DNA of 59,900 nt. Origin: an uncultured Actinomycetota bacterium. GTDB lineage: Bacteria > Actinomycetota > Humimicrobiia > Humimicrobiales > Humimicrobiaceae. The stretch spans positions 1 through 59,900 of the forward strand of contig CAYROY010000107.1 in NCBI GenBank assembly GCA_964426155.1, in the 5' to 3' direction. This document shows positions 29,101 through 44,953 of the stretch, piece after piece. Under the pieces are notes generated by a model, which saw nothing but the letters and a program-made list of their open reading frames with translations, had not been told where the DNA came from and searched no databases. A program made the position numbers and the translations under genes. The first letter of the stretch is position 1. Each line of letters begins with the position of its first letter.

Positions 29101-29123
29101 AAAAATAATAAATGGAGGTAGAT

Positions 29124-30044
29124 ATGGGCCTGAGTTCAGAAAACATACAAAAAAAGGAATTTCATATAGTTTTCAAGGGATATAAGCCTGAAGAAGTTGA
29201 TAAATTTCTGGATGTTCTTTCAGTAGAGTTCGAAGGGATGCAAAGGAGAATAAGGGATCTGGAAGAAAAAATTGAGAGTCTCAAGTATGAAGGAGATAGC
29301 GAATCTTTACAGATGAAAAAAGTTATACAGGAGGCACTTGTATCAGCACATCGCGTAGCTCAGGAGATAAAGAGAAAGGCAAGAGTAGAAGCAGAAGAAT
29401 TTGTTAGTAAAATGAAAGTTAAGGAAGAACAGGAACTTAGAGATATTAAAGATGAGAAAAAACTGATCGAAGCCGATATTTCAAGGTTAAAAATGGAATA
29501 TAGTGATTTTAAGGAACGGATAACCAGATTTGCTGACGATTTTAAACAGAAGACATTGAATATGAAAAACAGCATCATGCTGGACGAATTAGAAGGTGTA
29601 AATCATAAACATGGTGAAGGGGAGGGGACTGGATCAGAAAATAGAGGTACAGATCAAGACCTTGTCACTAAAGAAGAAACAGGAACTTCTGATGAGCCTT
29701 CAGAAGGACAAGAGGATAGACAAATAGAAGAAGAAAAGATAGAGGATTCCGATCTTTCATGGGAAAGTAAGGAAAGTAAGAAAATATCCACTGACCCAGA
29801 AAAGGAGCAGGGGGATATAAATGAAGAATTGGGCAATAATGAATTAAAGGAGCTTGCTTCACTTACTGATGAGATGCTTGAAAGATTGAATAAAGAGAAT
29901 GATAATAATATTGATCACGAAAATACAGATTTAGATGAACCGGAGAAAAATAAAGAAGAAGATAAGGGAAAAATAAACAGGAAGAAGATAGACATTGCAA
30001 ATCCGGATATAATCAATAATTTTTTTAAAACAGATGAAGAATAA
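29124..30044 (+). CDS. divIVA: DivIVA-domain cell division/polarity protein with a long acidic tail
   Basis: N-terminal DivIVA motif (IQKKEFHIVFKGYKPEEVDKFLD), a coiled coil, then a roughly 140-aa E/D/K-rich low-complexity C-terminus. GGAGG at 29114-29118 favours ATG 29124. Confidence 0.85.
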   Translation: MGLSSENIQKKEFHIVFKGYKPEEVDKFLDVLSVEFEGMQRRIRDLEEKIESLKYEGDSESLQMKKVIQEALVSAHRVAQEIKRKARVEAEEFVSKMKVKEEQELRDIKDEKKLIEADISRLKMEYSDFKERITRFADDFKQKTLNMKNSIMLDELEGVNHKHGEGEGTGSENRGTDQDLVTKEETGTSDEPSEGQEDRQIEEEKIEDSDLSWESKESKKISTDPEKEQGDINEELGNNELKELASLTDEMLERLNKENDNNIDHENTDLDEPEKNKEEDKGKINRKKIDIANPDIINNFFKTDEE

Positions 30045-30426: not shown

Positions 30427-30455
30427 TTGACATTCTAATATAACAGTTCTATCAT
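30427..30455 (+). promoter_or_regulatory. Candidate sigma-70-type promoter of the CpaE-like/HTH/peptide locus
   Basis: TTGACA (30427-30432), exactly 17-nt spacer, TATCAT (30450-30455). Confidence 0.5.
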
Positions 30456-30479
30456 AAATATTTAAGATATGGCTAAAGA

Positions 30480-30581
30480 ATGTTTAATATTATTACAATG
30501 TTAATTGTAGGAATTATAACATATATAATACAGAGGGTTTTTAGCAGAAGAATTGTAAAAATTATTAGACTAATAACGTAA
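30480..30581 (+). CDS. Candidate 33-aa hydrophobic small ORF
   Basis: ATG 30480 ... TAA 30579-30581 encodes MFNIITMLIVGIITYIIQRVFSRRIVKIIRLIT. Its stop overlaps the next gene's ATG (TAATG). No good SD, and an open frame of this length could arise by chance. Confidence 0.3.
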   Translation: MFNIITMLIVGIITYIIQRVFSRRIVKIIRLIT

Positions 30582-31651
30582 TGGGTGTAATTCTTTACAT
30601 AGGGAACGATAAAAATATTATGGTAAGTATCCAGAAGTTATCATCAGGAAGAAATAAAATTGCGGTACTGGATGCAAGATGTAATTACAGGCATTATATA
30701 GAAGAATATATACCGGATTATATTTTGCTATCCGGATCAATAAATAGGTTCAGTGAAATTTCACAATATATAATCAATGAAACATCTTCTAACCTTATAA
30801 TAACCGGGAATAAAAAAGGTAATCAAATATTACCGGGTATTCCAACTGTAAATAACCCTGAAACAATAGAAAGGCTTAAAAGTATTGTTGACTTAATAAA
30901 TAATATTGATTCGGAAACTAAGAGTGAAAATAGTAAATATAAATTTCTGAGGCAGGAAGTTATTTCTTTTTATTCGATACAGGGGGGAGTTGGAAAAACC
31001 ACTCTGGCTGTTAATGCTGCCTGGCAGTTACGGAGAATGAATATCGGCAGGATATTGATACTGGACCTTAACTTCTGCGAGGGGCCGTCGGATATACCTA
31101 TCAGGTTGGATATAAACAGCTCCAGGAATATAGGAGATTATATTGACGATGTTATCGGAGGTGATGGGGATATAGAGAAAAATATAGTAGAGTTAAATGG
31201 CATCGATATAATGAGTGCTCCATATTCATTATACAAGAGTGACAGCTTCGATATAGATATGCTGGATGGGCTGATTTATTCTGCAAGGAATGATTATGAT
31301 GTGATTATTGCAGATATACCATTCAGATATGACAATATTTCTCTGGAAATGATAAACCTTTCTACAACATCCGTACTTGTATTGTCACAGGAAATAGGGG
31401 TAGTACCAAGAATATTGGAATTTAAGAAATTCCTTCCCGAAAATCAGAAAAAAATAGCTGTAATAAATAAATTTGAAGATTCCCCGGGAATGGCAATTGA
31501 TGAACTGGAAAAAATAATAGGGATACCGGTATGCATATCTATACCTTACATCACATCAGAAAGAAAAGGCCTTATAAAAGATAATAATAAAATTACAGGA
31601 ATTTTAGATCTGGAGGCGGGAATAAATAATCTTTTAAATAATATATTTTAA
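30581..31651 (+). CDS. CpaE/TadZ-like ParA/MinD-superfamily ATPase with degenerate N-terminal receiver-like domain
   Basis: The C-terminal half has the P-loop FYSIQGGVGKTTLAVNAA, ILILDLN and IIADIP. The N-terminal roughly 110 aa has a receiver-like alternating pattern, but the phospho-acceptor position reads LLSGS. Confidence 0.7.
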   Translation: MGVILYIGNDKNIMVSIQKLSSGRNKIAVLDARCNYRHYIEEYIPDYILLSGSINRFSEISQYIINETSSNLIITGNKKGNQILPGIPTVNNPETIERLKSIVDLINNIDSETKSENSKYKFLRQEVISFYSIQGGVGKTTLAVNAAWQLRRMNIGRILILDLNFCEGPSDIPIRLDINSSRNIGDYIDDVIGGDGDIEKNIVELNGIDIMSAPYSLYKSDSFDIDMLDGLIYSARNDYDVIIADIPFRYDNISLEMINLSTTSVLVLSQEIGVVPRILEFKKFLPENQKKIAVINKFEDSPGMAIDELEKIIGIPVCISIPYITSERKGLIKDNNKITGILDLEAGINNLLNNIF

Positions 31652-31652
31652 C

Positions 31653-32039
31653 ATGGGAGAAAGAGAAGAATTATATACCATAAAGGAAGTATCTGAACTT
31701 GCAGGTATAAGTGAGCCGGAGATCATAAGGTTTGTGATGTTGAAAAAACTTAAAGCAACCAGGATAGGAAAAGCTATAAGAATAAAAGAAAAAGATTTGG
31801 AAGTTTTTTTGGACAATTTTGTTGGCGGTGAGGAAATAAAAAATTTAGCCGGCAAACCAGTTTTATATACAGCGGAACAGGTATCAAAAATATTAAAACT
31901 TTCAATCGATAATATATGGAATCTACTAAAGACCGGAAAGCTTAAAGGTTTTAAGATAAGGGAAGGAAGGAGTTCATGGAGGATACCTTCTGATAGCCTT
32001 GATGAGTTTATTGAGAGCCGGACCAGGAAAACTATTTGA
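31653..32039 (+). CDS. DNA-binding protein with two excisionase/MerR-type helix-turn-helix domains
   Basis: Two repeats of the excisionase-family HTH pattern: YTIKEVSELAGISEPEIIRFVMLKKLKATRIGKAIRIKEKDLEVFL and YTAEQVSKILKLSIDNIWNLLKTGKLKGFKIREGRSSWRIPSDSLDEFI. Starts 1 nt after the upstream stop. Confidence 0.75.
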   Translation: MGEREELYTIKEVSELAGISEPEIIRFVMLKKLKATRIGKAIRIKEKDLEVFLDNFVGGEEIKNLAGKPVLYTAEQVSKILKLSIDNIWNLLKTGKLKGFKIREGRSSWRIPSDSLDEFIESRTRKTI

Positions 32040-32043
32040 TATT

Positions 32044-32202
32044 ATGGAGAAAAAAAAGGGCCTTACCCGTCTGGAGAAGACAGCTATTGTAGTTATCATA
32101 ATACTGGTAATTATTATTGTAGGTCTTATTTTTAAGGACCGGATAGAAGAGTATATAAAAATATTTATGGAATGGTACACAGCAGAAAGCCAGAGTTTGT
32201 AG
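32044..32202 (+). CDS. 52-aa single-pass membrane protein
   Basis: MEKKKGLTRLEKTAIVVIIILVIIIVGLIFKDRIEEYIKIFMEWYTAESQSL. ATG 32044 is chosen because the 31999 start in the ORF track overlaps the HTH gene. Confidence 0.5.
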   Translation: MEKKKGLTRLEKTAIVVIIILVIIIVGLIFKDRIEEYIKIFMEWYTAESQSL

Positions 32203-32220
32203 TAAAAGGAGGTGAGAAAG

Positions 32221-32292
32221 ATGAAGAAATTATACAGGGTACTGATGATACTGGGATCATTAGTAGGAATATGCGCTACAGTTAGATGGTAG
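32221..32292 (+). CDS. 23-aa hydrophobic peptide, copy 1
   Basis: AAAAGGAGGTGA SD with 8-nt spacing to ATG 32221. Encodes MKKLYRVLMILGSLVGICATVRW, ending at TAG. Confidence 0.6.
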   Translation: MKKLYRVLMILGSLVGICATVRW

Positions 32293-32344
32293 AAAATATG
32301 AATCTATGGAAAAAAATAGATTTCAAGAGATGGAGGTGAGAAAG

Positions 32345-32416
32345 ATGAAGAAATTATACAGGGTACTGATGATACTGGGATCATTAGTAGGAATATGCGC
32401 TACAGTCAGATGGTAG
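32345..32416 (+). CDS. 23-aa hydrophobic peptide, copy 2 (identical product)
   Basis: GGAGGTGA SD with the same spacing and an identical peptide. The single nucleotide difference from copy 1 is synonymous (GTT/GTC, Val21). Confidence 0.6.
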   Translation: MKKLYRVLMILGSLVGICATVRW

Positions 32417-32482
32417 AAAATATAACAAATTATACTTTTTTGCTATAATAAATAATATTTATTAACTATAAATACTATAAAT

Positions 32483-33733
32483 TTGGTTGAAAAGAAAGCT
32501 CTAGTTTTAAAGATATATGTTTATGTTATTTTCCTGATAGGGTTGGCTGTTTTTATTTACATCCTCATAAACTATAAGAATATATCTTTATTGGGAGTGA
32601 TATTGTTTGGTATGTTGATATTCATTGCTGACAACCTTTCAGCACCTCTCCCAAAGACCGGAAGCGTATCAGTTAATTTTGGTATATCTCTAGCAAGTCT
32701 CATAATATTTGGTCCGTCTACTGCGATTATTGTTACTTTCATTTCTATTTTCAATATAAGGGAGTTCATTAAAAGAATTCCATATTACAGACATATATTT
32801 AATGCCGGCCAATATCTTATTTCAATGGGAATAGCAAGTCTGGTCTTTGAGCTGATATATAACAGGGAAGTTTCAAACTTTTTTAACCCGGCTAATTTAA
32901 GCTATATTCTTGCTGCAGCTTATATATTTTTCTTTCTAAACACAATTCTTACGGCAGGAGCGATCTCAATAAGTGAGGGAATCAGCGTTGCTAATGTCTG
33001 GATATTTAATTTTGCATGGCTTATACCTTTTCAATTATTCCTGGCCGCAATGGCAATAGCAATTTCTTTCCTTTACAAGCTTTATGGTCCTTTTACATTA
33101 CTGTTTACTTCATTACCTCTTATAATCGCTCAGTATACATATCTTTTAAGGGTAAAAGAAAGAAGAGCATTATTAAATAGTATTTTGCAGATCGTAAAGA
33201 TAGTTGAGGCTAAGGACCCTTATACTGCAGGTCACTCGGTAAGAGTTGCTGAATATAGTGAAAAAATCGCAAGGGAATTAAAACTGAATGAATATGATAT
33301 TGAACTTCTAATAAACCTTGCTAATTTACATGACCTTGGGAAAATTCAGATTGATCTATCGATACTTAATAAGCCGGGAAAATTTGATAAGAAAGACTGG
33401 GAAGAGGTAAAAAAACATCCTATAGTTGGTTATAATATAGTAAAAGAGATAACCTTTCTCAAAAGTGAAGCGAAATCGATATTATACCATCATGAAAGAA
33501 TAGACGGAAGCGGTTACCCATATGGATTAAAAGGAGCAAAAATCCCGCTTTTTGCAAAGATACTGGCTGTAGCTGATTCATATGATGCCATGACTACAAG
33601 CAGACCCTACCGGGATTCTCTCTCAAACAGTGAGGCGATAATAGAACTCAAAAAAAATTCAGGAACCCAGTTTGATATAAATGTCGCCGGGGCAATGATA
33701 GAAATATTAAAGAGGGAAATGGCTGAATCATGA
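32483..33733 (+). CDS. Polytopic membrane HD-GYP domain protein (putative c-di-GMP phosphodiesterase)
   Basis: The N-terminal roughly 220 aa holds about 7 hydrophobic helices. The C-terminal HD-GYP domain has HSVRVAEY, LHDLGK and HHERIDGSGYPYGL. TTG start with no clear SD. Confidence 0.85.
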   Translation: MVEKKALVLKIYVYVIFLIGLAVFIYILINYKNISLLGVILFGMLIFIADNLSAPLPKTGSVSVNFGISLASLIIFGPSTAIIVTFISIFNIREFIKRIPYYRHIFNAGQYLISMGIASLVFELIYNREVSNFFNPANLSYILAAAYIFFFLNTILTAGAISISEGISVANVWIFNFAWLIPFQLFLAAMAIAISFLYKLYGPFTLLFTSLPLIIAQYTYLLRVKERRALLNSILQIVKIVEAKDPYTAGHSVRVAEYSEKIARELKLNEYDIELLINLANLHDLGKIQIDLSILNKPGKFDKKDWEEVKKHPIVGYNIVKEITFLKSEAKSILYHHERIDGSGYPYGLKGAKIPLFAKILAVADSYDAMTTSRPYRDSLSNSEAIIELKKNSGTQFDINVAGAMIEILKREMAES

Positions 33734-34248
33734 TTAAAAAGTACTGGGTTATATTTTTAAAATGTATTGGAGTTTTTGCTGCAGGATGTATTATTGGATA
33801 TTTTTTTTATTATTTTTTTAGCAATCAGAGTGCTTTTATAATAGAAAAGTTTAAGTTACTACAGAGTTTTTTCGGTATAGAAAATTTCAGCGATGGTATG
33901 CTGATAAGAACTGCCATTTTAACTATACTTTTAGGAAACCTTGTATCTATAATATGCTATATTGCTCTGGGTTTTGCCAGGTTAAGTCTTCCCATAAGTT
34001 TTTTATCCGGCTTTTTCGTAATTGTCTTTTTGTTTTCAGGCATAATAAGACATGGAACAGCCATACCTCTGGAGGTAATAATACTATCCTCTATAGAGAT
34101 GCTATACAGAATTATAGCTGTGAGTGCCGGAGAATATATAAGCAAACAGAGATTAAAAAACAGGGCAGTACCAGTAACTGCTTTTAGCACTGTATTCATA
34201 TTATATATTTTTGCCGCTTTTTATGAGGTATGGCAGTTATATCAGTAG
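33730..34248 (+). CDS. Membrane protein, SpoIIM/DUF95-like
   Basis: 172 aa, 4-5 TM helices, with an RHGTAIPLE segment resembling the HGxxExP motif of SpoIIM-family proteins. ATGA overlap with the HD-GYP gene. Confidence 0.45.
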   Translation: MIKKYWVIFLKCIGVFAAGCIIGYFFYYFFSNQSAFIIEKFKLLQSFFGIENFSDGMLIRTAILTILLGNLVSIICYIALGFARLSLPISFLSGFFVIVFLFSGIIRHGTAIPLEVIILSSIEMLYRIIAVSAGEYISKQRLKNRAVPVTAFSTVFILYIFAAFYEVWQLYQ

Positions 34249-38183: not shown

Positions 38184-38257
38184 GCGGGCTTAGTATAGAG
38201 GTAGTACGTGAGCTTCCCAAGCTCAAAAGGCGGGTTCAATTCCCGTAGCCCGCTCCA
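38184..38257 (+). tRNA. tRNA-Gly (anticodon CCC)
   Basis: Cloverleaf folded by hand: acceptor GCGGGCT/AGCCCGC, D arm GTAT-AGAGGTA-GTAC, anticodon arm TGAGC-TTCCCAA-GCTCA, 4-nt variable loop, T arm GCGGG-TTCAATT-CCCGT, discriminator U, encoded CCA. Confidence 0.9.
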
Positions 38258-38571: not shown

Positions 38572-41500
38572 ATGCTTAATAAAAAATATCTGGAATACAT
38601 TACTTCCGGGGAAAGTAATTTTCTTATAACAGGGCCTCCAGGTTCTGGTAAAACCTATACTCTACTGAGAATAATAAAGTATTTGATTGATGTAAGGAGA
38701 GTAGAACCTGACAAAATATTGGTACTTACTTTTAACCGCAGATGGTCAAAAATCATCAGGGAACAATCAACCATAAAAGTTGGTGATAGCCTGTGGGAGA
38801 TACCTATAGAAACTTTCTATTCATTCTGCATAGATCTTCTAGAATTGTCAGAACTTTATAGGCTTAGTGATGATTCACGCAGAGAAAAAAATAGAAAAGA
38901 GGGAAACCTCTTTGCCGGTTTTAACCAATCTGGCGGACTTAGAATTCTTAATTCTGTTGAGCAGTGGAACCTATTAAAGAATATAGTTAAAGAGCTTGAC
39001 AAGAATGATTACCCCAGTTCTTATAGGTGTTACAATTCTACGGATCACGTTGCCTGTAGTTTTTTACAGGAAGTATTTGATTTCATTCTGAGAGCCCAGG
39101 AAAATCTGTTAGATCCCCATATGCTTTTAAAAAGATTCACGCCGGAATTATCTCCAATACTTTCAGAGCTGTCAGGAATATATGCCAGGTATACGAATGA
39201 ACTTATAGAGAATGGTAGTTATAATTATGGAATGCTGCTTTTGAAGACTGCAGATATTCTTGAAAAAGAGCCGTCAATAAGGAGGATTTTTCAAAAAAGG
39301 TATAAATATATAATTGTCGATGAACTGCAGGAGACTAATAGAGCACAGTTTAAAATAATTGAATTGATTACCAGAAATAATTGTATTTTCTTTGGTAATG
39401 ATGACCAGGCTATTTATAGTTTCAGAGGTTCTTCAATAGATAATTTTAGAAGATTGTATAAAGATTTAGATAATGAAAAAAGGGTATTTTTTCTGAAACG
39501 TAATTATAGAAGTGGTTCTGATATAGTAAGGCTTTCTGAGATGTTTATAAATATTATCAGTCCGCAAATACCAAAAGCAAGTATTCCACTGAGTAAAAGC
39601 AGGAAAAGCGGACATGTAGCACTTAAAAGTTTTCCATCCCTGCTGGAAGAGGTTAATTATATTTGTGAAAAGATACTTATACTTAATAGGAATTTTAGAA
39701 TAAGGCCTGAAAATATTGCTATTATTATAAAAGGTGCCGGGTATGAAACACATCTGATAGAAGAAGCATTAAGGCAGAGAAAGATTTCCTTCATAAGAAG
39801 AAGTTCAAGAAGTCTTATGGAAAACCATTATATATCATATATTATTAATTTTCTAAAGCTGGCAGCAGAATTAAATAAAAGGATGGCAGGGGCAAAGAAA
39901 AAGAAGAAAAGAGATATAGATTATAATATATTAAATAATGGACAGCAAAAAGAGGATATAATTAAAATTCCACATGATAATCAGGATTATTTAAGAATAA
40001 ACAGGTTACTGGAGGATATACTTAATTCAAATATTATTGATTTAGATCCGCTGTTTTACAGTAAATTAAAGTCTTCCTATAGTTTGATCGAAGACAAATC
40101 TAAGATAAGCTTTCTGGATTATATTTTGGAAAATGAGAGCAAAGGCCAGTTTCAGAAAAAATTATCAAAGATAATAAAACATATAGAATATTTCACCGGT
40201 AAAATAGGCTGTGATATATTTTCATATATCATGGATCTTTTAAATGATCCAGAGATAGGCATATTTAGATTTTTAAAAGATAAAAGGAGTGCGGGTCCTG
40301 ATATACAATCGTGGATATGCCTGGGAGACTTCTTAAAGAGTGTGCAGGAATATACTGTAAAATCAACAGATAAAAGTGTAGAAGCTTATCTGTCTTATAT
40401 AGAGAATCTCGAAATTAACAGGTTCCTCGAAGAAGTAGAAGAAAGTACAGAAGAGCAGTCTGTACCGGATACGGTAAATATTATTAGCTTCCATCAGTGC
40501 AAGGGAATGGAATATGATGCGGTTTTTATCCCCTTTATAAATGATAAATACCTTCCTTCAGAATTCAAACCGCCCCAGATCTTCGATATATGCCTTTTCG
40601 AGAATGCTGTAACAGGAAGTAACCTGAAATATGAAGATATTGAGCAGGAGCATTTCTCGGGAGAAGTCAGGTTATTTTATAACGGAATGACCAGGGCAAG
40701 AAAATATCTTTACATCACCTCCTGCAAATCCAGAGGGGATTCTGTATTTTTTAAAAAATTAAGGGATATCATGAAAAGTATGGAAAAAGATGAAGATTTT
40801 TCTTTGGATGGTGGTGTTAATAAAAAAAATGATTTCAGGGAAAATCCGTGTAAAAATATATATGAAGACAGGGACTGGAGAGTAAAAAAAAGACTGCTTA
40901 CTACCATGGTAAGACTAGAAAATGGCTTAAAGACCGAATATCGTATGTTTTTAAAAGATATTATCATGCTGAATCACCTTTATAATCCAAAGAAATGGTG
41001 GAACCTTAATAAAAATACAGCCAATCCCCATAATCCTTTTGAAATATTCAGAAAGCCTTTTTCTTACAGCGGTCTCGAGGCATACAGGAGCTGCCCTTTC
41101 AGGTATATGGCAAGATATTTTTATAACATCTATGGAGAGGAAGAATTTAATTTACGGTTGGGAAAGATATACCACAATATATTATTAGAGTTTTTTAATG
41201 GTAAAGAAAATTCTTATACATGGGAGAGACTGGAAGAAATAATAGATTCAAGCTTTGAAAAGCAATATTTTGAGTTCCGTCCCCTAAAAGATGAGGCTAT
41301 CTCCAGAACAAAGTCTGACATGAAAAGGTATTATGAAAATTATCTTCCTGAAAACCCAGAAAGGTCGATAATGGAAAAGCCCTTTCTTATTAAGCTGAAT
41401 GGATTGATGATAGGGGGCAGGATCGATCAGATAAATTTTCTGGGCGACGGCAGAATGGAGATCGTGGATTTCAAATCCAGCCAGGGTCCATATAGTAAAA

Positions 41501-41796
41501 ATGATCTTAAAGAAGAACTGCAACTTAAGTTATACCGGTTTGCAGTAGAGGGGAGAATAAAAGATTATGGGGCCAGTGGAATAATAATGAAATACATCAA
41601 TCTCGGAGCGGAAAAGAATGCTGAGTACTTTATCCCTGATAATTATTATGATAGTGCAGAGGTGGAGGAAAACATTAAAAGTATTACTTCAAAAATATTG
41701 AATGAGGATTTTAGAAATAATCCAAAGAATTATATGTCCTGTAAAGATTGTGAATATAAACTTATATGTCCGGGGTTCTACGGAAATGAATATTAG
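38572..41796 (+). CDS. Helicase-nuclease subunit (AddB/AdnA-like): SF1 UvrD-type motor plus C-terminal PD-(D/E)XK nuclease with a 4-Cys motif
   Basis: Walker A GPPGSGKT, DExQ box IVDELQETN, motif III GNDDQAIYSFRG, NYRS, FHQCKGMEYD, GMTRAR. C-terminal nuclease: GRIDQI...EIVDFKS. Cys ligands: SCPFRY ... CKDCEYKLIC. Confidence 0.85.
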   Translation: MLNKKYLEYITSGESNFLITGPPGSGKTYTLLRIIKYLIDVRRVEPDKILVLTFNRRWSKIIREQSTIKVGDSLWEIPIETFYSFCIDLLELSELYRLSDDSRREKNRKEGNLFAGFNQSGGLRILNSVEQWNLLKNIVKELDKNDYPSSYRCYNSTDHVACSFLQEVFDFILRAQENLLDPHMLLKRFTPELSPILSELSGIYARYTNELIENGSYNYGMLLLKTADILEKEPSIRRIFQKRYKYIIVDELQETNRAQFKIIELITRNNCIFFGNDDQAIYSFRGSSIDNFRRLYKDLDNEKRVFFLKRNYRSGSDIVRLSEMFINIISPQIPKASIPLSKSRKSGHVALKSFPSLLEEVNYICEKILILNRNFRIRPENIAIIIKGAGYETHLIEEALRQRKISFIRRSSRSLMENHYISYIINFLKLAAELNKRMAGAKKKKKRDIDYNILNNGQQKEDIIKIPHDNQDYLRINRLLEDILNSNIIDLDPLFYSKLKSSYSLIEDKSKISFLDYILENESKGQFQKKLSKIIKHIEYFTGKIGCDIFSYIMDLLNDPEIGIFRFLKDKRSAGPDIQSWICLGDFLKSVQEYTVKSTDKSVEAYLSYIENLEINRFLEEVEESTEEQSVPDTVNIISFHQCKGMEYDAVFIPFINDKYLPSEFKPPQIFDICLFENAVTGSNLKYEDIEQEHFSGEVRLFYNGMTRARKYLYITSCKSRGDSVFFKKLRDIMKSMEKDEDFSLDGGVNKKNDFRENPCKNIYEDRDWRVKKRLLTTMVRLENGLKTEYRMFLKDIIMLNHLYNPKKWWNLNKNTANPHNPFEIFRKPFSYSGLEAYRSCPFRYMARYFYNIYGEEEFNLRLGKIYHNILLEFFNGKENSYTWERLEEIIDSSFEKQYFEFRPLKDEAISRTKSDMKRYYENYLPENPERSIMEKPFLIKLNGLMIGGRIDQINFLGDGRMEIVDFKSSQGPYSKNDLKEELQLKLYRFAVEGRIKDYGASGIIMKYINLGAEKNAEYFIPDNYYDSAEVEENIKSITSKILNEDFRNNPKNYMSCKDCEYKLICPGFYGNEY

Positions 41797-44700
41797 AGGT
41801 ACGGAACAGCAGCTAAAAATATTTAAAGATAATAGCCAGGTAAAAAGGGTTATAGCATGTGCTGGGTCCGGTAAGACGTGGGTCTTAACTAATCATATAG
41901 TTAAGGTGTTGAAAGATGGATATTGCGAACCCGGCCAGATTCTGGCATTGACTTTTACGAAAAATGCCGCCGAAAACATGCGGCAGAGAATAAAAAGGTT
42001 ATTTGGGGATTACGGAAGTTATTCTGAAATTGATATATATACATTTAATTCATTTGGCAACGAAATTATCTATGAAAACAGTTTTGAAATGGGACTGGGA
42101 AAGGATTTCAGACTGATAACAGACAGCCAATCATGGCAGATTCTCTACAGAGTATTAAGAGAGGCAAAATTTGAAAATTTAAAGATAGGTAAAAATCCAG
42201 GAATATTTCTGCAGGATGTTCTTGAATTTATACAAAATGTAAAAAACAATCTTATCACACGTGAGGATTTTGAAGAATATATAAGAAACTACGTAAAGTT
42301 GCTGGAACCTTATAAGAGCAGGGCGCTTAAGAATGAGGAGATAATATTAACGGACCTGGCATCAGAGTTATTCAGTATATATTTAGAATATGAAAAAATT
42401 AAATCGGACGAGAATAAGATAGATTATGCGGACCAGGTATTTATCCCTTATTCCCTGTTTTCCAGACGGAAAATAATAAGAGAAAAATACAGATTAAAAT
42501 ATAAATACATTTTTATAGATGAATTTCAGGATACAAATGTAGCTCAGGCAAGATTTATTACAATGCTGTATAAAAGAAACCATAACAGAATAATGATAGT
42601 GGGTGATGATGATCAGGCTATATATTCATTCAGGGGAGCCTGCGTAGAAAATATACTTGAATTTGATAGATGGGATTGTTTTGGAAAGGATAATGTCAAA
42701 GACTTCTATCTATCGGTAAATTTCAGATCGGGACAGGAAATAATAAATGCAGCAGATGCAGTAATATCAAAAAATAAGAAAAGATTTAGAAAAGCATTTG
42801 AATGCTATGATGATAGCAAAAGCTCGGAAGTTTTTTTTGATATTAGCGATACAATTGAAGACGAGGCGGAATCTATTGCTGGATATATACGTAGCATAAT
42901 GAATAAAACTGAGATAAAACCTGGTAAGATTGCAATTCTTGGACGGCGTAAAAGATTTGATAAGATAATGAAAGCACTGAAGAATGAAAATATCAGGTAT
43001 GAATTAATAGGAAGTAAAGACCTTTATTACGAACCAGAAATACTTTTCATTACTTCCTGGCTTAAGGTAATAGGCGATGTGTACGATGAGCTATCAATTG
43101 TATATATTTTGAAATCTGATAAATATCGTATAGGTGACAGGGATATTTTTTACATTAAGAATAATAAACCCGGAAATAATAGAGTAGAAAGACTGATAGA
43201 TGGTATAAGCAACTGCCAAAATAATAATTTTTTGAGTGATGAAGCAAAAAGAAGGCTTGCATCCTTTATGAAAAGTCTTCTATTTTATATAAAACAGTCT
43301 GGAATTTTGGATCTTAAAGAGCTTATAAGCCTTATATTTGAAGATTCTGGACTTGCTATGGAACTAAAGTCAGGATTTGGCAAGCATTATCAGAAAAAGT
43401 TAAAGAATGTTGAAAATCTTATAAAAATAGCTTCAGATTTTACCTCTCAATATCGATTAGAAGGATACAGAAGTTTCATTACATATCTGGAGGATATCGC
43501 CAGGACCGATTATGATAACCCGGATAAAATGGAAATATCCGATTATAATTCCGTAAAGATTATGAGCATACATGCAGCCAAAGGGCTAGAATTCGATGCT
43601 GTAATAATCCCAATGCTGTGGGAGAGTGATTACCTGGGGAGAAATGCAGGAAATTCAGGTTTTGCAATACCTTCCCAGTTAAGAAAGGATAATTCTATAT
43701 GGGCAAAAAAGAAAGATTTTAAAAGCGCCAGAGAATTTAATAAAGCATTGAGAGAATTAAGAATTGAAGAAGAAAGAAGGATATTTTATGTTGCATGCAG
43801 CAGGGCCAGAAGAATACTTCTGTTTTCATACAGCCGTTTTAAAAATAAGATTGATATGATAGATGAGAAAAAGAGTCCAAAAGAATTGGTTCCCTTTTTT
43901 AAGGATCTTCTGGTTGAAAACATTCGTACAATCAAACCGCTGGGAAATGATGCAGAAAAATATATTTATAATATTAATGGTAAAAACCATATCAATAAAG
44001 ATATATGCCAGGGAACTCTATCAAAGAATGAAAGTATTAAAAAGACATCAAATTCTATAAATTTAAAAAAATATGACTGGAAATACTTTGAAGAGAAATT
44101 AGGATTGCTGTCAGATATGATTGATGAGAATAGATTTACATATTTTAATGATAATCTCAATAAATTATATGGCACCACCATAGAAGACGGTATAATAAAA
44201 GAGGCAAAAAGATATTTTCATAATATTAAATTAGATACTGTTTTAAAATCTAATGGCCAGAATATAAAATCAGGTAAAAAAATTTTTCCCCTGAGTCCTG
44301 TTCTGGATTATCTGGAATGTCCTGCAATGTACAAGTGGAAATATGTATATTGCATACCCCGGAAACCCGACCGAAAAATGGAAATAGGGGAGAGGGTACA
44401 TAAATATATTGAAAATATAGTTTTTATATGTTCACAAAATAATTCTTTTAAAATTAAAAATTTTTTAGATGGATGCCCTTATGATGCAAAGCCCTATATC
44501 AGGTCATTTATAGAAAGCAGGTTTGCTGATTTTCATTCTTATCCGCCGGAAGAGATTATGCTGGAGAAATTATTCTATCTAAAGACAGGTAATTATTTCA
44601 TAACAGGTAAAATAGACAGGGTGGATATAAGAAAAGAAATAATTGAAATAATTGATTATAAATTATCAGATGGAACAGTAAAAGAAATACCTTTGAGGTA

Positions 44701-44953
44701 TAAAAGACAGATACTGTCATATATTTCTGCATTTTCAAAGATTATGGATATACCGGTTGATAAAATAAAGGGCACAATCTTTTATCTTGGAAACGGGAGG
44801 TCTGTGTCAATGTGGGGTAATAGTGAAGAAATTGAAAGAAACGATAAAATTCTTTTAACAAATGTTAAAAAGATAATTGATGGAAAGTTCGCATCGGTTA
44901 AAAAGGCCGCCTGCAATAAAAATTGTGATTACCTTGATTTATGTATAAGATGA
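41786..44953 (+). CDS. Helicase-nuclease subunit (AddA/AdnB-like): SF1 UvrD-type motor plus C-terminal PD-(D/E)XK nuclease with a 4-Cys motif
   Basis: Walker A CAGSGKTW, IDEFQDTN, GDDDQAIYSFRGA, NFRSG, IHAAKGLEFD, YVACSRAR. Nuclease: GKIDRVD...EIIDYKLS. Cys: ECPAMY ... CNKNCDYLDLC. ATG 41786 overlaps the upstream stop by 11 nt. Confidence 0.85.
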   Translation: MNIRGTEQQLKIFKDNSQVKRVIACAGSGKTWVLTNHIVKVLKDGYCEPGQILALTFTKNAAENMRQRIKRLFGDYGSYSEIDIYTFNSFGNEIIYENSFEMGLGKDFRLITDSQSWQILYRVLREAKFENLKIGKNPGIFLQDVLEFIQNVKNNLITREDFEEYIRNYVKLLEPYKSRALKNEEIILTDLASELFSIYLEYEKIKSDENKIDYADQVFIPYSLFSRRKIIREKYRLKYKYIFIDEFQDTNVAQARFITMLYKRNHNRIMIVGDDDQAIYSFRGACVENILEFDRWDCFGKDNVKDFYLSVNFRSGQEIINAADAVISKNKKRFRKAFECYDDSKSSEVFFDISDTIEDEAESIAGYIRSIMNKTEIKPGKIAILGRRKRFDKIMKALKNENIRYELIGSKDLYYEPEILFITSWLKVIGDVYDELSIVYILKSDKYRIGDRDIFYIKNNKPGNNRVERLIDGISNCQNNNFLSDEAKRRLASFMKSLLFYIKQSGILDLKELISLIFEDSGLAMELKSGFGKHYQKKLKNVENLIKIASDFTSQYRLEGYRSFITYLEDIARTDYDNPDKMEISDYNSVKIMSIHAAKGLEFDAVIIPMLWESDYLGRNAGNSGFAIPSQLRKDNSIWAKKKDFKSAREFNKALRELRIEEERRIFYVACSRARRILLFSYSRFKNKIDMIDEKKSPKELVPFFKDLLVENIRTIKPLGNDAEKYIYNINGKNHINKDICQGTLSKNESIKKTSNSINLKKYDWKYFEEKLGLLSDMIDENRFTYFNDNLNKLYGTTIEDGIIKEAKRYFHNIKLDTVLKSNGQNIKSGKKIFPLSPVLDYLECPAMYKWKYVYCIPRKPDRKMEIGERVHKYIENIVFICSQNNSFKIKNFLDGCPYDAKPYIRSFIESRFADFHSYPPEEIMLEKLFYLKTGNYFITGKIDRVDIRKEIIEIIDYKLSDGTVKEIPLRYKRQILSYISAFSKIMDIPVDKIKGTIFYLGNGRSVSMWGNSEEIERNDKILLTNVKKIIDGKFASVKKAACNKNCDYLDLCIR

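Follow-up and report, generated by a model that had tools for sequence, protein, structure and literature searches.

A locus at the divIVA end of the division cluster was analysed in a 59,900-nucleotide (nt) stretch of DNA (referred to as the window) from an uncultured bacterium of the Humimicrobiaceae (Actinomycetota, class Humimicrobiia), namely positions 1 to 59,900 of contig CAYROY010000107.1 in GenBank assembly GCA_964426155.1. The locus (positions 30427 to 34248) is composite. It consists of a fixed trio of genes, encoding a TadZ-like ATPase, a protein with two helix-turn-helix (HTH) repeats (HTH2) and a 52-aa membrane protein (TM52), and of a separately promoted, repeatedly lost add-on in which a MASE9-like HD-GYP phosphodiesterase and an orphan membrane protein (TM172) are accompanied by a 23-aa peptide (pep23). 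The two parts differ in their evolutionary behaviour. The trio may constitute a DNA-membrane scaffold at the division cluster and pep23 may be a modulator of the MASE9-HD-GYP add-on; we give this reading slightly less than an even chance of being right.

In an initial annotation, the locus had been described as one candidate module of eight tightly packed same-strand open reading frames (ORFs) behind a near-consensus promoter. The eight ORFs, their coordinates and their junctions were all confirmed, as was the promoter, which is the best match of the region. The annotation was otherwise corrected in three respects: the single module becomes two units, one of the ORFs is spurious, and the family given for one protein lacks support. 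The features of the locus are the following:

30427 to 30455, plus strand: P1, promoter of the ATPase operon (TTGACA-17-TATCAT; 11 of 12 positions)
30464 to 30496, plus strand: leader block AAGATATGGCTAAAGAATGTTTAATATTATTAC with imperfect dyad symmetry, the only well-conserved leader stretch in the alignment
30480 to 30581, plus strand: 33-codon ORF in the leader, with a TAATG overlap with the ATPase start
30581 to 31651, plus strand: TadZ-like two-domain ATPase, 356 amino acids (aa); Pfam AAA_31, CbiA and ParA
31653 to 32039, plus strand: HTH2, 128 aa, two excisionase-type winged HTH (HTH_17) repeats; 1-nt gap after the ATPase gene
32044 to 32202, plus strand: TM52, bitopic membrane protein of 52 aa; 4-nt gap after the HTH2 gene
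32185 to 32423, plus strand: 124-bp tandem repeat with the pep23 genes (copies at 32185-32299 and 32309-32423, 90% identical)
32221 to 32292, plus strand: pep23 copy 1 (MKKLYRVLMILGSLVGICATVRW), 23 aa; GGAGGTG Shine-Dalgarno sequence
32345 to 32416, plus strand: pep23 copy 2, the same peptide with one synonymous difference
32422 to 32449, plus strand: P2, extended -10 promoter (TGcTATAAT) for the HD-GYP and TM172 genes
32483 to 33733, plus strand: HD-GYP phosphodiesterase (HD_5, E=8e-35) with a fused N-terminal MASE9-like membrane sensor domain (about residues 1-225)
33730 to 34248, plus strand: TM172, orphan six-helix membrane protein, 172 aa; ATGA overlap with the HD-GYP gene

The comparison set was obtained by scanning one genome per GTDB species. 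This gave 42 loci, all from metagenome-assembled genomes (MAGs) labelled Actinomycetota, Candidatus Humimicrobiaceae, Candidatus Hydromicrobium or unclassified. Candidatus Humimicrobiaceae and Candidatus Hydromicrobium belong to two families of class Candidatus Humimicrobiia, and the loci span at least two families. Identical proteins are carried by contigs of several Joint Genome Institute (JGI) metagenomes; the window species is represented in ML7/ML8 and in 33000775xx/33000773xx. Gene order was established by tblastn, with 17 window proteins as queries against all loci. The backbone order across the 42 genomes is FtsZ-SepF-ProC-YggT-DivIVA-DUF167-ATPase-HTH2-TM52-(pep23, HD-GYP, TM172)-GT2(-)-FTHF cyclo-ligase(-)-SBP-DAGK(-), where (-) marks the minus strand. 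The ATPase and HTH2 genes were found in 100% of the loci reaching that far, and the core trio, tightly coupled 3' of divIVA-DUF167, is never lost. In 39 loci, the distance between the ATPase stop and the HTH2 start ranges from -8 to +2 nt, and a TM52 orthologue directly follows HTH2 in 37 of the 37 loci with gap-free sequence past that gene. The pairing of the ATPase with a double-HTH protein, proposed from the window only, is thus invariable across the loci. Conservation of the neighbourhood in the lineage had been suggested as a check. It was observed for the ATPase, HTH2 and TM52 genes, which follow divIVA-DUF167 in every genome with sequence that far; the HD-GYP part proved to be facultative, and the leader ORF is not kept.

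The pep23, HD-GYP and TM172 genes are jointly absent from 11 loci (L020, L023, L033, L035, L037, L038, L039, L041, L043, L045 and L046), where GT2 lies directly 3' of TM52. Mapped onto a neighbour-joining tree built from the ATPase, the absences are spread over at least five or six separate lineages; L020, for example, lies beside its close relative L019, in which the unit is present. Such scattered joint absences point to repeated loss of one unit. There are two apparent exceptions: in L029 pep23 is present and interrupted by an assembly gap, and in L008 a decayed pep23 pseudogene stands 5' of intact HD-GYP and TM172 genes. HD-GYP and TM172 also have a second conserved promoter, P2; in each of the 19 loci inspected, its TTTTTGGTATAAT-like element was found 40-49 nt 5' of the HD-GYP start. 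The single eight-gene module was abandoned on these two grounds, the promoter before HD-GYP and the presence or absence of the HD-GYP part independently of the ATPase part. Since this add-on is separately promoted and repeatedly lost, a link between a positioning ATPase and turnover of cyclic di-GMP (c-di-GMP) would be facultative at best.

The promoter of the trio is less uniform. P1, in the form TTGACA-N16-18-TAYNAT, was found in 29 of 40 orthologous loci, 77-211 nt 5' of the ATPase start, and its spacer is conserved (TATAAYAGTTCTATTAT). The promoter scan overall was at chance level (33 sites vs 32.9 in shuffled sequence). In the loci without P1, the distance between DUF167 and the ATPase gene is mostly just 51-169 nt, a spacing suggestive of co-transcription with divIVA-DUF167. 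Wherever P1 is absent and the gap is 51-137 nt (L020, L037, L038, L041, L045 and L046), the HD-GYP unit is missing as well; this joint lack may reflect genome streamlining or a regulatory link.

Just 3' of P1, the leader block GATATGGNTAAAAANTGTTTAATATTATC (about 30 nt) has a pS of 0.17, vs 0.28-0.36 at the synonymous sites of the neighbouring genes, and may be an operator. A search of the leader in Rfam gave no match even at E<=1, and RNAalifold on eight leaders gave a consensus of -0.09 kcal/mol with no covariation; a riboswitch or structured leader was rejected on these two results. The 33-codon ORF that overlaps this region had been taken for a hydrophobic micro-protein. Its ratio of nonsynonymous to synonymous differences (pN/pS) is neutral (1.01 vs L016, a relative with 82% identity), whereas that of the neighbouring genes is 0.05-0.34. 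Its start is ATA in L008 and TTG in L011, L012 and L015, and its frame meets a stop after 6 codons in L007, whereas L006 has a version of 29 aa. Its product matched nothing in Pfam or NCBIfam. With neither start nor frame conserved, the micro-protein was rejected; the sequence is probably not a functional protein and at most a leader ORF.

A 12-mer, AATTACAGGCAT, has 6 matches in the window at one mismatch or fewer vs 0.58 expected, four of which lie in or beside the locus (30318, 30683, 31591 and 34445, plus strand). The copy at +102 of the ATPase gene owes its conservation solely to the conserved peptide that it encodes, NYRHYIE, and no species other than that of the window has the upstream copy. 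The motif is not conserved as a site and was rejected as an operator.

The ATPase has the architecture of TadZ. In its AlphaFold2 (AF2) model (predicted local distance difference test, pLDDT, 81), an alpha/beta receiver-like domain (1-110) is followed by a disordered linker (111-123) and a MinD/ParA domain (126-356). The best fold match in the PDB, found with Foldseek, is 3FKQ, aligned over the full length (357 columns, E=5.7e-12); 3EA0, MinD, BcsQ, Soj and FleN come next. The 3FKQ entry is entitled 'NtrC-like two-domain protein' from E. rectale, and we take it to be the E. rectale TadZ structure of Xu et al. 2012. The family comprises about 100 clusters of 355-369 residues, and its named sources are "Actinomycetota bacterium". 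At its edge the score drops from 175 to 70 bits, and CpaE proteins with a receiver domain lie beyond. By sequence, the closest outgroup is P0106, a CpaE encoded within a complete Tad locus (Flp, A24 peptidase, TadE, RcpC, CpaF, TadB and TadC). The CpaE/TadZ-like label given initially is therefore supported by fold and by outgroup. The models of related families were not passed: the ATPase scored 27.8 bits vs a cut-off of 154.45 with TIGR03815 (CpaE_hom_Actino/Ssd), 21.3 and 46.2 bits vs 212.9 and 201.75 with the MinD models TIGR01968 and TIGR01969, and 23 vs 180 bits with the ParA_partition model.

The Tad proteins of L048 were used as tblastn queries within the window and 47 related loci (+/-10 kb each, 740 kb in total), and only the ATPase itself was matched. 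The absence of Tad, flagellar and Par partners, noted at first for the window, was found to extend to these 47 loci. The protein thus presents a TadZ architecture outside any Tad locus. Like TadZ/CpaE, it has an atypical receiver-like domain, apparently without the phospho-acceptor Asp, followed by a MinD/ParA domain with a degenerate deviant Walker A. Unlike them, it is encoded at the divIVA end of the division and cell wall (dcw) cluster, where none of the genomes has a Tad gene within 10 kb, and its gene is translationally coupled to those of HTH2 and TM52.

The nucleotide-binding site is altered in a consistent way. Walker A reads SIQGGVGKT (S-x-QGGVGKT in the family) and switch I DLNFCEGPSD. 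Gln134 and Asn164, invariant among 21 family members, align with the signature Lys (K11) and with D40 of MinD, the latter being the residue changed in the hydrolysis-deficient Aquifex MinD of 4V02. The MinD signature (KGGxGK[ST] and the catalytic Asp of switch I) is thus replaced by Gln and Asn, whereas the P-loop Lys and the Walker B Asp are retained. With Gln for the signature Lys and Asn for the water-activating Asp, the ATPase most likely binds ATP and turns it over slowly. In the receiver-like domain, an invariant Ser51 appears to take the place of the phospho-acceptor Asp, as read by eye from the family sequences. The terminal helix (345-355) is moderately amphipathic (hydrophobic moment 0.35-0.67) and lacks basic residues in most members. 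The E. rectale TadZ differs in that the P-loop Lys kept here is reported lost there (PMC10482377), the changes in the present protein being Gln and Asn at the signature Lys and the catalytic Asp. Ssd (Rv3660c), an actinobacterial relative of TadZ/CpaE, is reported to be connected with septum placement and to give partial complementation of an E. coli minDE mutant (PMC10482377).

HTH2 matches PF12728 in two stretches (E=5.1e-24) and scores 58 bits with TIGR01764 (cut-off 28.8). Its identity across the class is 60-91%, near that of FtsZ (71-93%) and far above that of the ATPase (39-82%), and the second repeat is almost invariant. Its PDB relatives by sequence are a designed repeat protein and the phage excisionase Gp37, the latter being the only natural one and a weak match. 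A ParA-ParB partition system would have a ParB-type (or RHH) centromere-binding protein next to ParA, together with parS repeats; HTH2 has no ParB domain, and no conserved repeat array was found. No plasmid relatives of the ATPase-HTH2 pair were found; a mobile-element or plasmid origin was rejected for this reason and because of the fixed chromosomal context.

TM52 is made of a basic N-terminus, a conserved [LF]TxxEKxA motif, one transmembrane helix and a conserved C-terminal IKEYIEIFKNWY-like helix (consensus ..K+x[LF]TxWEKIAIAVIVILIIIIILLIFNQxIKEYIEIFKNWY..). A pN/pS of 0.34 indicates purifying selection.

From these elements, the trio may be read as a chromosome-membrane or division-site positioning device working together with DivIVA and FtsZ, whose genes are close by. 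In this device, the ATPase would be a nucleotide-dependent scaffold of the TadZ type, and not an oscillating or gradient-forming motor; it would connect HTH2 on the DNA with the membrane by way of TM52 and its short cytoplasmic tail. The constant position of the trio, at the divIVA end of the dcw cluster, is what suggests a division- or nucleoid-associated role. The combination of a positioning ATPase with a DNA-binding adaptor, already put forward in the initial annotation, is a plausible hypothesis. Combinations of a DNA-binding protein with a membrane or ATPase element are found in Noc (DNA plus membrane) and in MipZ-ParB. The locus resembles the MinD, MipZ and Noc systems in the ATPase fold, in the position of the genes beside ftsZ, sepF and divIVA and in combining a DNA binder with a membrane element. 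It differs from them in that no MinC, MinE or ParB partner is encoded nearby, the signature Lys is absent and the scores with the MinD models are far below threshold; in addition, the proposed membrane link is a separate bitopic protein and not an amphipathic helix.

The ATPase and HTH2 could also form a regulatory pair, with HTH2 as a transcription factor and the MinD-like ATPase as its nucleotide-dependent partner or antagonist (compare FleN-FleQ), controlling genes for motility, envelope or development. The HD-GYP enzyme would then give second-messenger input where it is present, and TM52 would be the membrane anchor or sensor of the pair. HTH_17 (excisionase/MerR-like) domains are typical of DNA-binding regulators, and the conserved dyad-like block just 3' of P1 could be an autoregulatory operator. 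As in FleN-FleQ and BcsQ-BcsE, a MinD-like ATPase is paired with a DNA-binding or regulatory partner close to a cyclic-dinucleotide enzyme, which adjoins in most species; BcsQ and FleN are among the fold matches, FleN including its complex with FleQ (7EJW, 8P53). Flagellar genes are also frequent in basal actinobacterial classes including Humimicrobiia (PMC10746217). However, HTH2 has no effector, c-di-GMP-binding or AAA+ domain, the ATPase is nearest to TadZ and not to FleN or FlhG, and the HD-GYP gene is separately promoted and dispensable in many lineages. Tandem HTH repeats would be expected to read direct repeats and not a dyad, and the sole repeated motif is the 12-mer that is not conserved as a site. 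The FtsZ-like conservation of HTH2 and its fixed position at the divIVA end suit a structural or cell-cycle role better than that of an ordinary regulator. The regulatory pair is the strongest of the alternatives, and we consider it unlikely.

A second alternative is that the trio is a remnant or outpost of a Tad (type IVc) pilus, the ATPase being a true TadZ that localises a Tad machine whose genes lie in another part of the genome, TM52 a pilin of the Flp type that has diverged and HTH2 the regulator. The two-domain TadZ fold and the outgroup inside a complete Tad locus are in its favour, and the basic leader, [LF]-T-x-x-E motif and hydrophobic helix of TM52 resemble the Flp G/xTxxEY site; the window TM52 also has a weak match to Flp1_like (E=3e-4). 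On the other hand, this model was matched by only 4 of 24 TM52 members, always below the cut-off and amid many spurious hydrophobic matches. Prepilin peptidases require Gly at -1. In TM52, Glu +5 is invariant and Gly -1 occurs in only about half of the orthologues, and a Flp pilin was rejected on these weak and inconsistent matches. No CpaF/TadA, TadB, TadC, A24 peptidase, TadE or RcpC was found in the 740 kb searched, the ATPase falls far below the cut-off of the actinobacterial CpaE/Ssd model, and the trio is fixed at a division cluster and not at a secretion locus. We judge a Tad outpost decidedly improbable.

The scaffold reading concerns the trio only, and the add-on has to be considered on its own. 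The HD-GYP protein matches HD_5 with 120.5 bits and MASE9 with 24.2 bits vs a cut-off of 24.3; PF20972 (MASE9) is precomputed for nearly all of its orthologues. Its homologues among the matches listed are in-class orthologues. The HD and HHExxDGxGYP motifs are intact, and the best PDB relatives are 5Z7C (V-cGAP3) and 4MCW (a c-di-GMP enzyme). Alignment with these two indicates a cyclic dinucleotide as the substrate; it is most likely c-di-GMP, 3'3'-cyclic GMP-AMP (3'3'-cGAMP) being also a candidate. The enzyme is like the MASE9-HD-GYP proteins T. maritima TM1467 and S. venezuelae HdgA in its N-terminal polytopic MASE9 and complete set of catalytic motifs. Unlike them, it is flanked by 1-3 tandem pep23 genes and by the orphan TM172, neither of which appears in the available part of the MASE9 description; there the domain is inferred to bind its ligand within the membrane (bioRxiv 10.1101/2021.11.05.467447), and no MASE9 protein has a known ligand.

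TM172 had been labelled SpoIIM/DUF95-like. This family was rejected: PF01944 was not matched by the window protein or by 5 distant homologues and was matched by only one of 15 orthologues (E=0.12). No Pfam or NCBIfam family was found for TM172, and its AF2 model (pLDDT 85, six helices) gave no PDB fold match at all. Among 1.84 billion representatives, the protein is limited to 11 clusters. Within the class, its gene always adjoins that of the HD-GYP protein.

The two 23-aa peptides of the initial annotation proved to be genuine, as judged from Shine-Dalgarno conservation and purifying selection. GGAGGTG was found 7-8 nt 5' of the pep23 ATG in 36 of 36 copies (24 loci). Across 23 distinct nucleotide versions, pN/pS is 0.245, with 14, 9 and 21 variable sites at codon positions 1, 2 and 3, respectively; Met1, Lys3, Leu11, Ser13, Leu14, Gly16, Ile17 and Trp23 are invariant. 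By these measures pep23, like TM52, is a real gene. No Shine-Dalgarno sequence can be recognised before the ATPase (30560-30583), HTH2 (31640-31655) and HD-GYP genes, and the HD-GYP start codon is TTG. With a perfect site at pep23 (32205-32223 for copy 1) and none at these three genes, very different translation efficiencies are expected within a short stretch.

There are 1-3 pep23 copies per locus across the class. Within the window species, two repeat copies were found in the window and in L004, three in L001 and L002 (11592-11960) and two with a 144-nt spacer in L003 (11632-11856). Such differences within one species suggest ongoing recombination between the repeats and a variable peptide dosage. 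In the window, pep23 starts 18 nt after the TM52 stop and lies between TM52 and P2; being 5' of P2 and directly behind TM52, it is probably carried by the P1 transcript of the core operon. Its evolutionary fate is tied to that of HD-GYP. No match was found in Pfam or NCBIfam. A precursor of a ribosomally synthesized and post-translationally modified peptide (RiPP) or glycocin served by GT2 was also considered and rejected, since Cys is not conserved (Ala in half of the clades), GT2 is present regardless of pep23 and no modifying enzymes are encoded nearby.

For the add-on, the proposed explanation is that pep23 would insert into the membrane and modulate the intramembrane MASE9 sensor of the HD-GYP protein, TM172 or both, and so tune the hydrolysis of the cyclic dinucleotide. 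As a probable product of the core transcript, the peptide could report expression of the core operon to the phosphodiesterase. Small membrane proteins that modulate sensors or transporters are exemplified by MgrB-PhoQ, KdpF and AcrZ. Like them, pep23 is a single hydrophobic helix with a strong ribosome-binding site, under purifying selection and encoded beside a polytopic sensor enzyme. It is unlike them in having no sequence relation to described families and in the variation of its tandem copy number within one species.

The original proposal of one eight-gene operon, with a positioning ATPase under the control of micro-proteins and of c-di-GMP turnover, could draw on the common strand, the tight packing without a predicted terminator in between and the location of pep23 physically in the ATPase transcription unit, which leaves room for cross-talk with the HD-GYP unit to which it is evolutionarily tied, but we hold it highly improbable given the independent conserved promoter of HD-GYP and TM172, the repeated loss of pep23, HD-GYP and TM172 with the trio retained and the neutral evolution of the 33-codon ORF.

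Several points weigh against the explanation that we prefer, a scaffold trio with a pep23-modulated add-on. Each functional step in it is an inference drawn from gene position, conservation and similarity to known families. Many HTH_17 proteins, moreover, are simply transcription factors or excisionases. In L008 (11640-11740), pep23 has decayed (ATG changed to ATA, in-frame stop at codon 5, Shine-Dalgarno remnant retained) beside intact HD-GYP and TM172 genes, so that the peptide is not indispensable to them. The most distant TM172 homologues (32-37% identity; L049, 2-1709, and L050, 1-1699) are encoded directly behind MFS_3-type transporters and not behind HD-GYP, and the TM172 family may consist of generic accessory subunits of polytopic membrane proteins. 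Finally, the E. rectale TadZ is reported to hydrolyse ATP although both of its Walker lysines are missing (PMC10482377), and the loss of canonical residues is no proof of low ATPase activity.

The preferred explanation can also be stated in a stronger, joint form. A hydrolysis-impaired, TadZ-derived ATPase would bridge HTH2 to the TM52 anchor and position the nucleoid or division site beside DivIVA, as an exapted pilus-localisation factor; apart from this, pep23 would be the first peptide identified as an intramembrane ligand or regulator of MASE9, coupling expression of a division-linked operon to cyclic-dinucleotide hydrolysis. That all of this should hold together we find rather improbable.

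Several other genes of the window were recorded. DivIVA (29112-30044, 310 aa) has the usual N-terminal DivIVA domain; the C-terminal half behind it is long, of low complexity and highly acidic, and the gene shows the highest GC skew and AT skew in the window. An AddAB/AdnAB-like pair occupies 38572-44953: two successive genes, overlapping by about 95 nt, encode proteins of about 1,080 aa that both contain UvrD-helicase and PD-(D/E)XK nuclease domains, and a tRNA gene (38184-38254) lies just 5' of the pair. The remaining genes of the window are housekeeping genes.

The initial annotation had not recognised the arrangement as a described system, and no description of it was found in the literature. 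Proteins of known kinds appear here in new company: the orphan TadZ/MinD-like ATPase is accompanied by a DNA-binding partner, and the MASE9-HD-GYP enzyme by a micro-protein. Little practical use can be expected, the class being uncultured and the ATPase subfamily, TM52, pep23 and TM172 being all confined to it. If the scaffold reading is true, the trio would show how a division site or chromosome is positioned in early-branching uncultured Actinomycetota, with a pilus-localisation ATPase reused as a static scaffold; to our knowledge, most Actinobacteria have no clear Min or Noc system. The pairing of pep23 with the MASE9-HD-GYP enzyme would be a concrete candidate for what an intramembrane MASE sensor domain senses.

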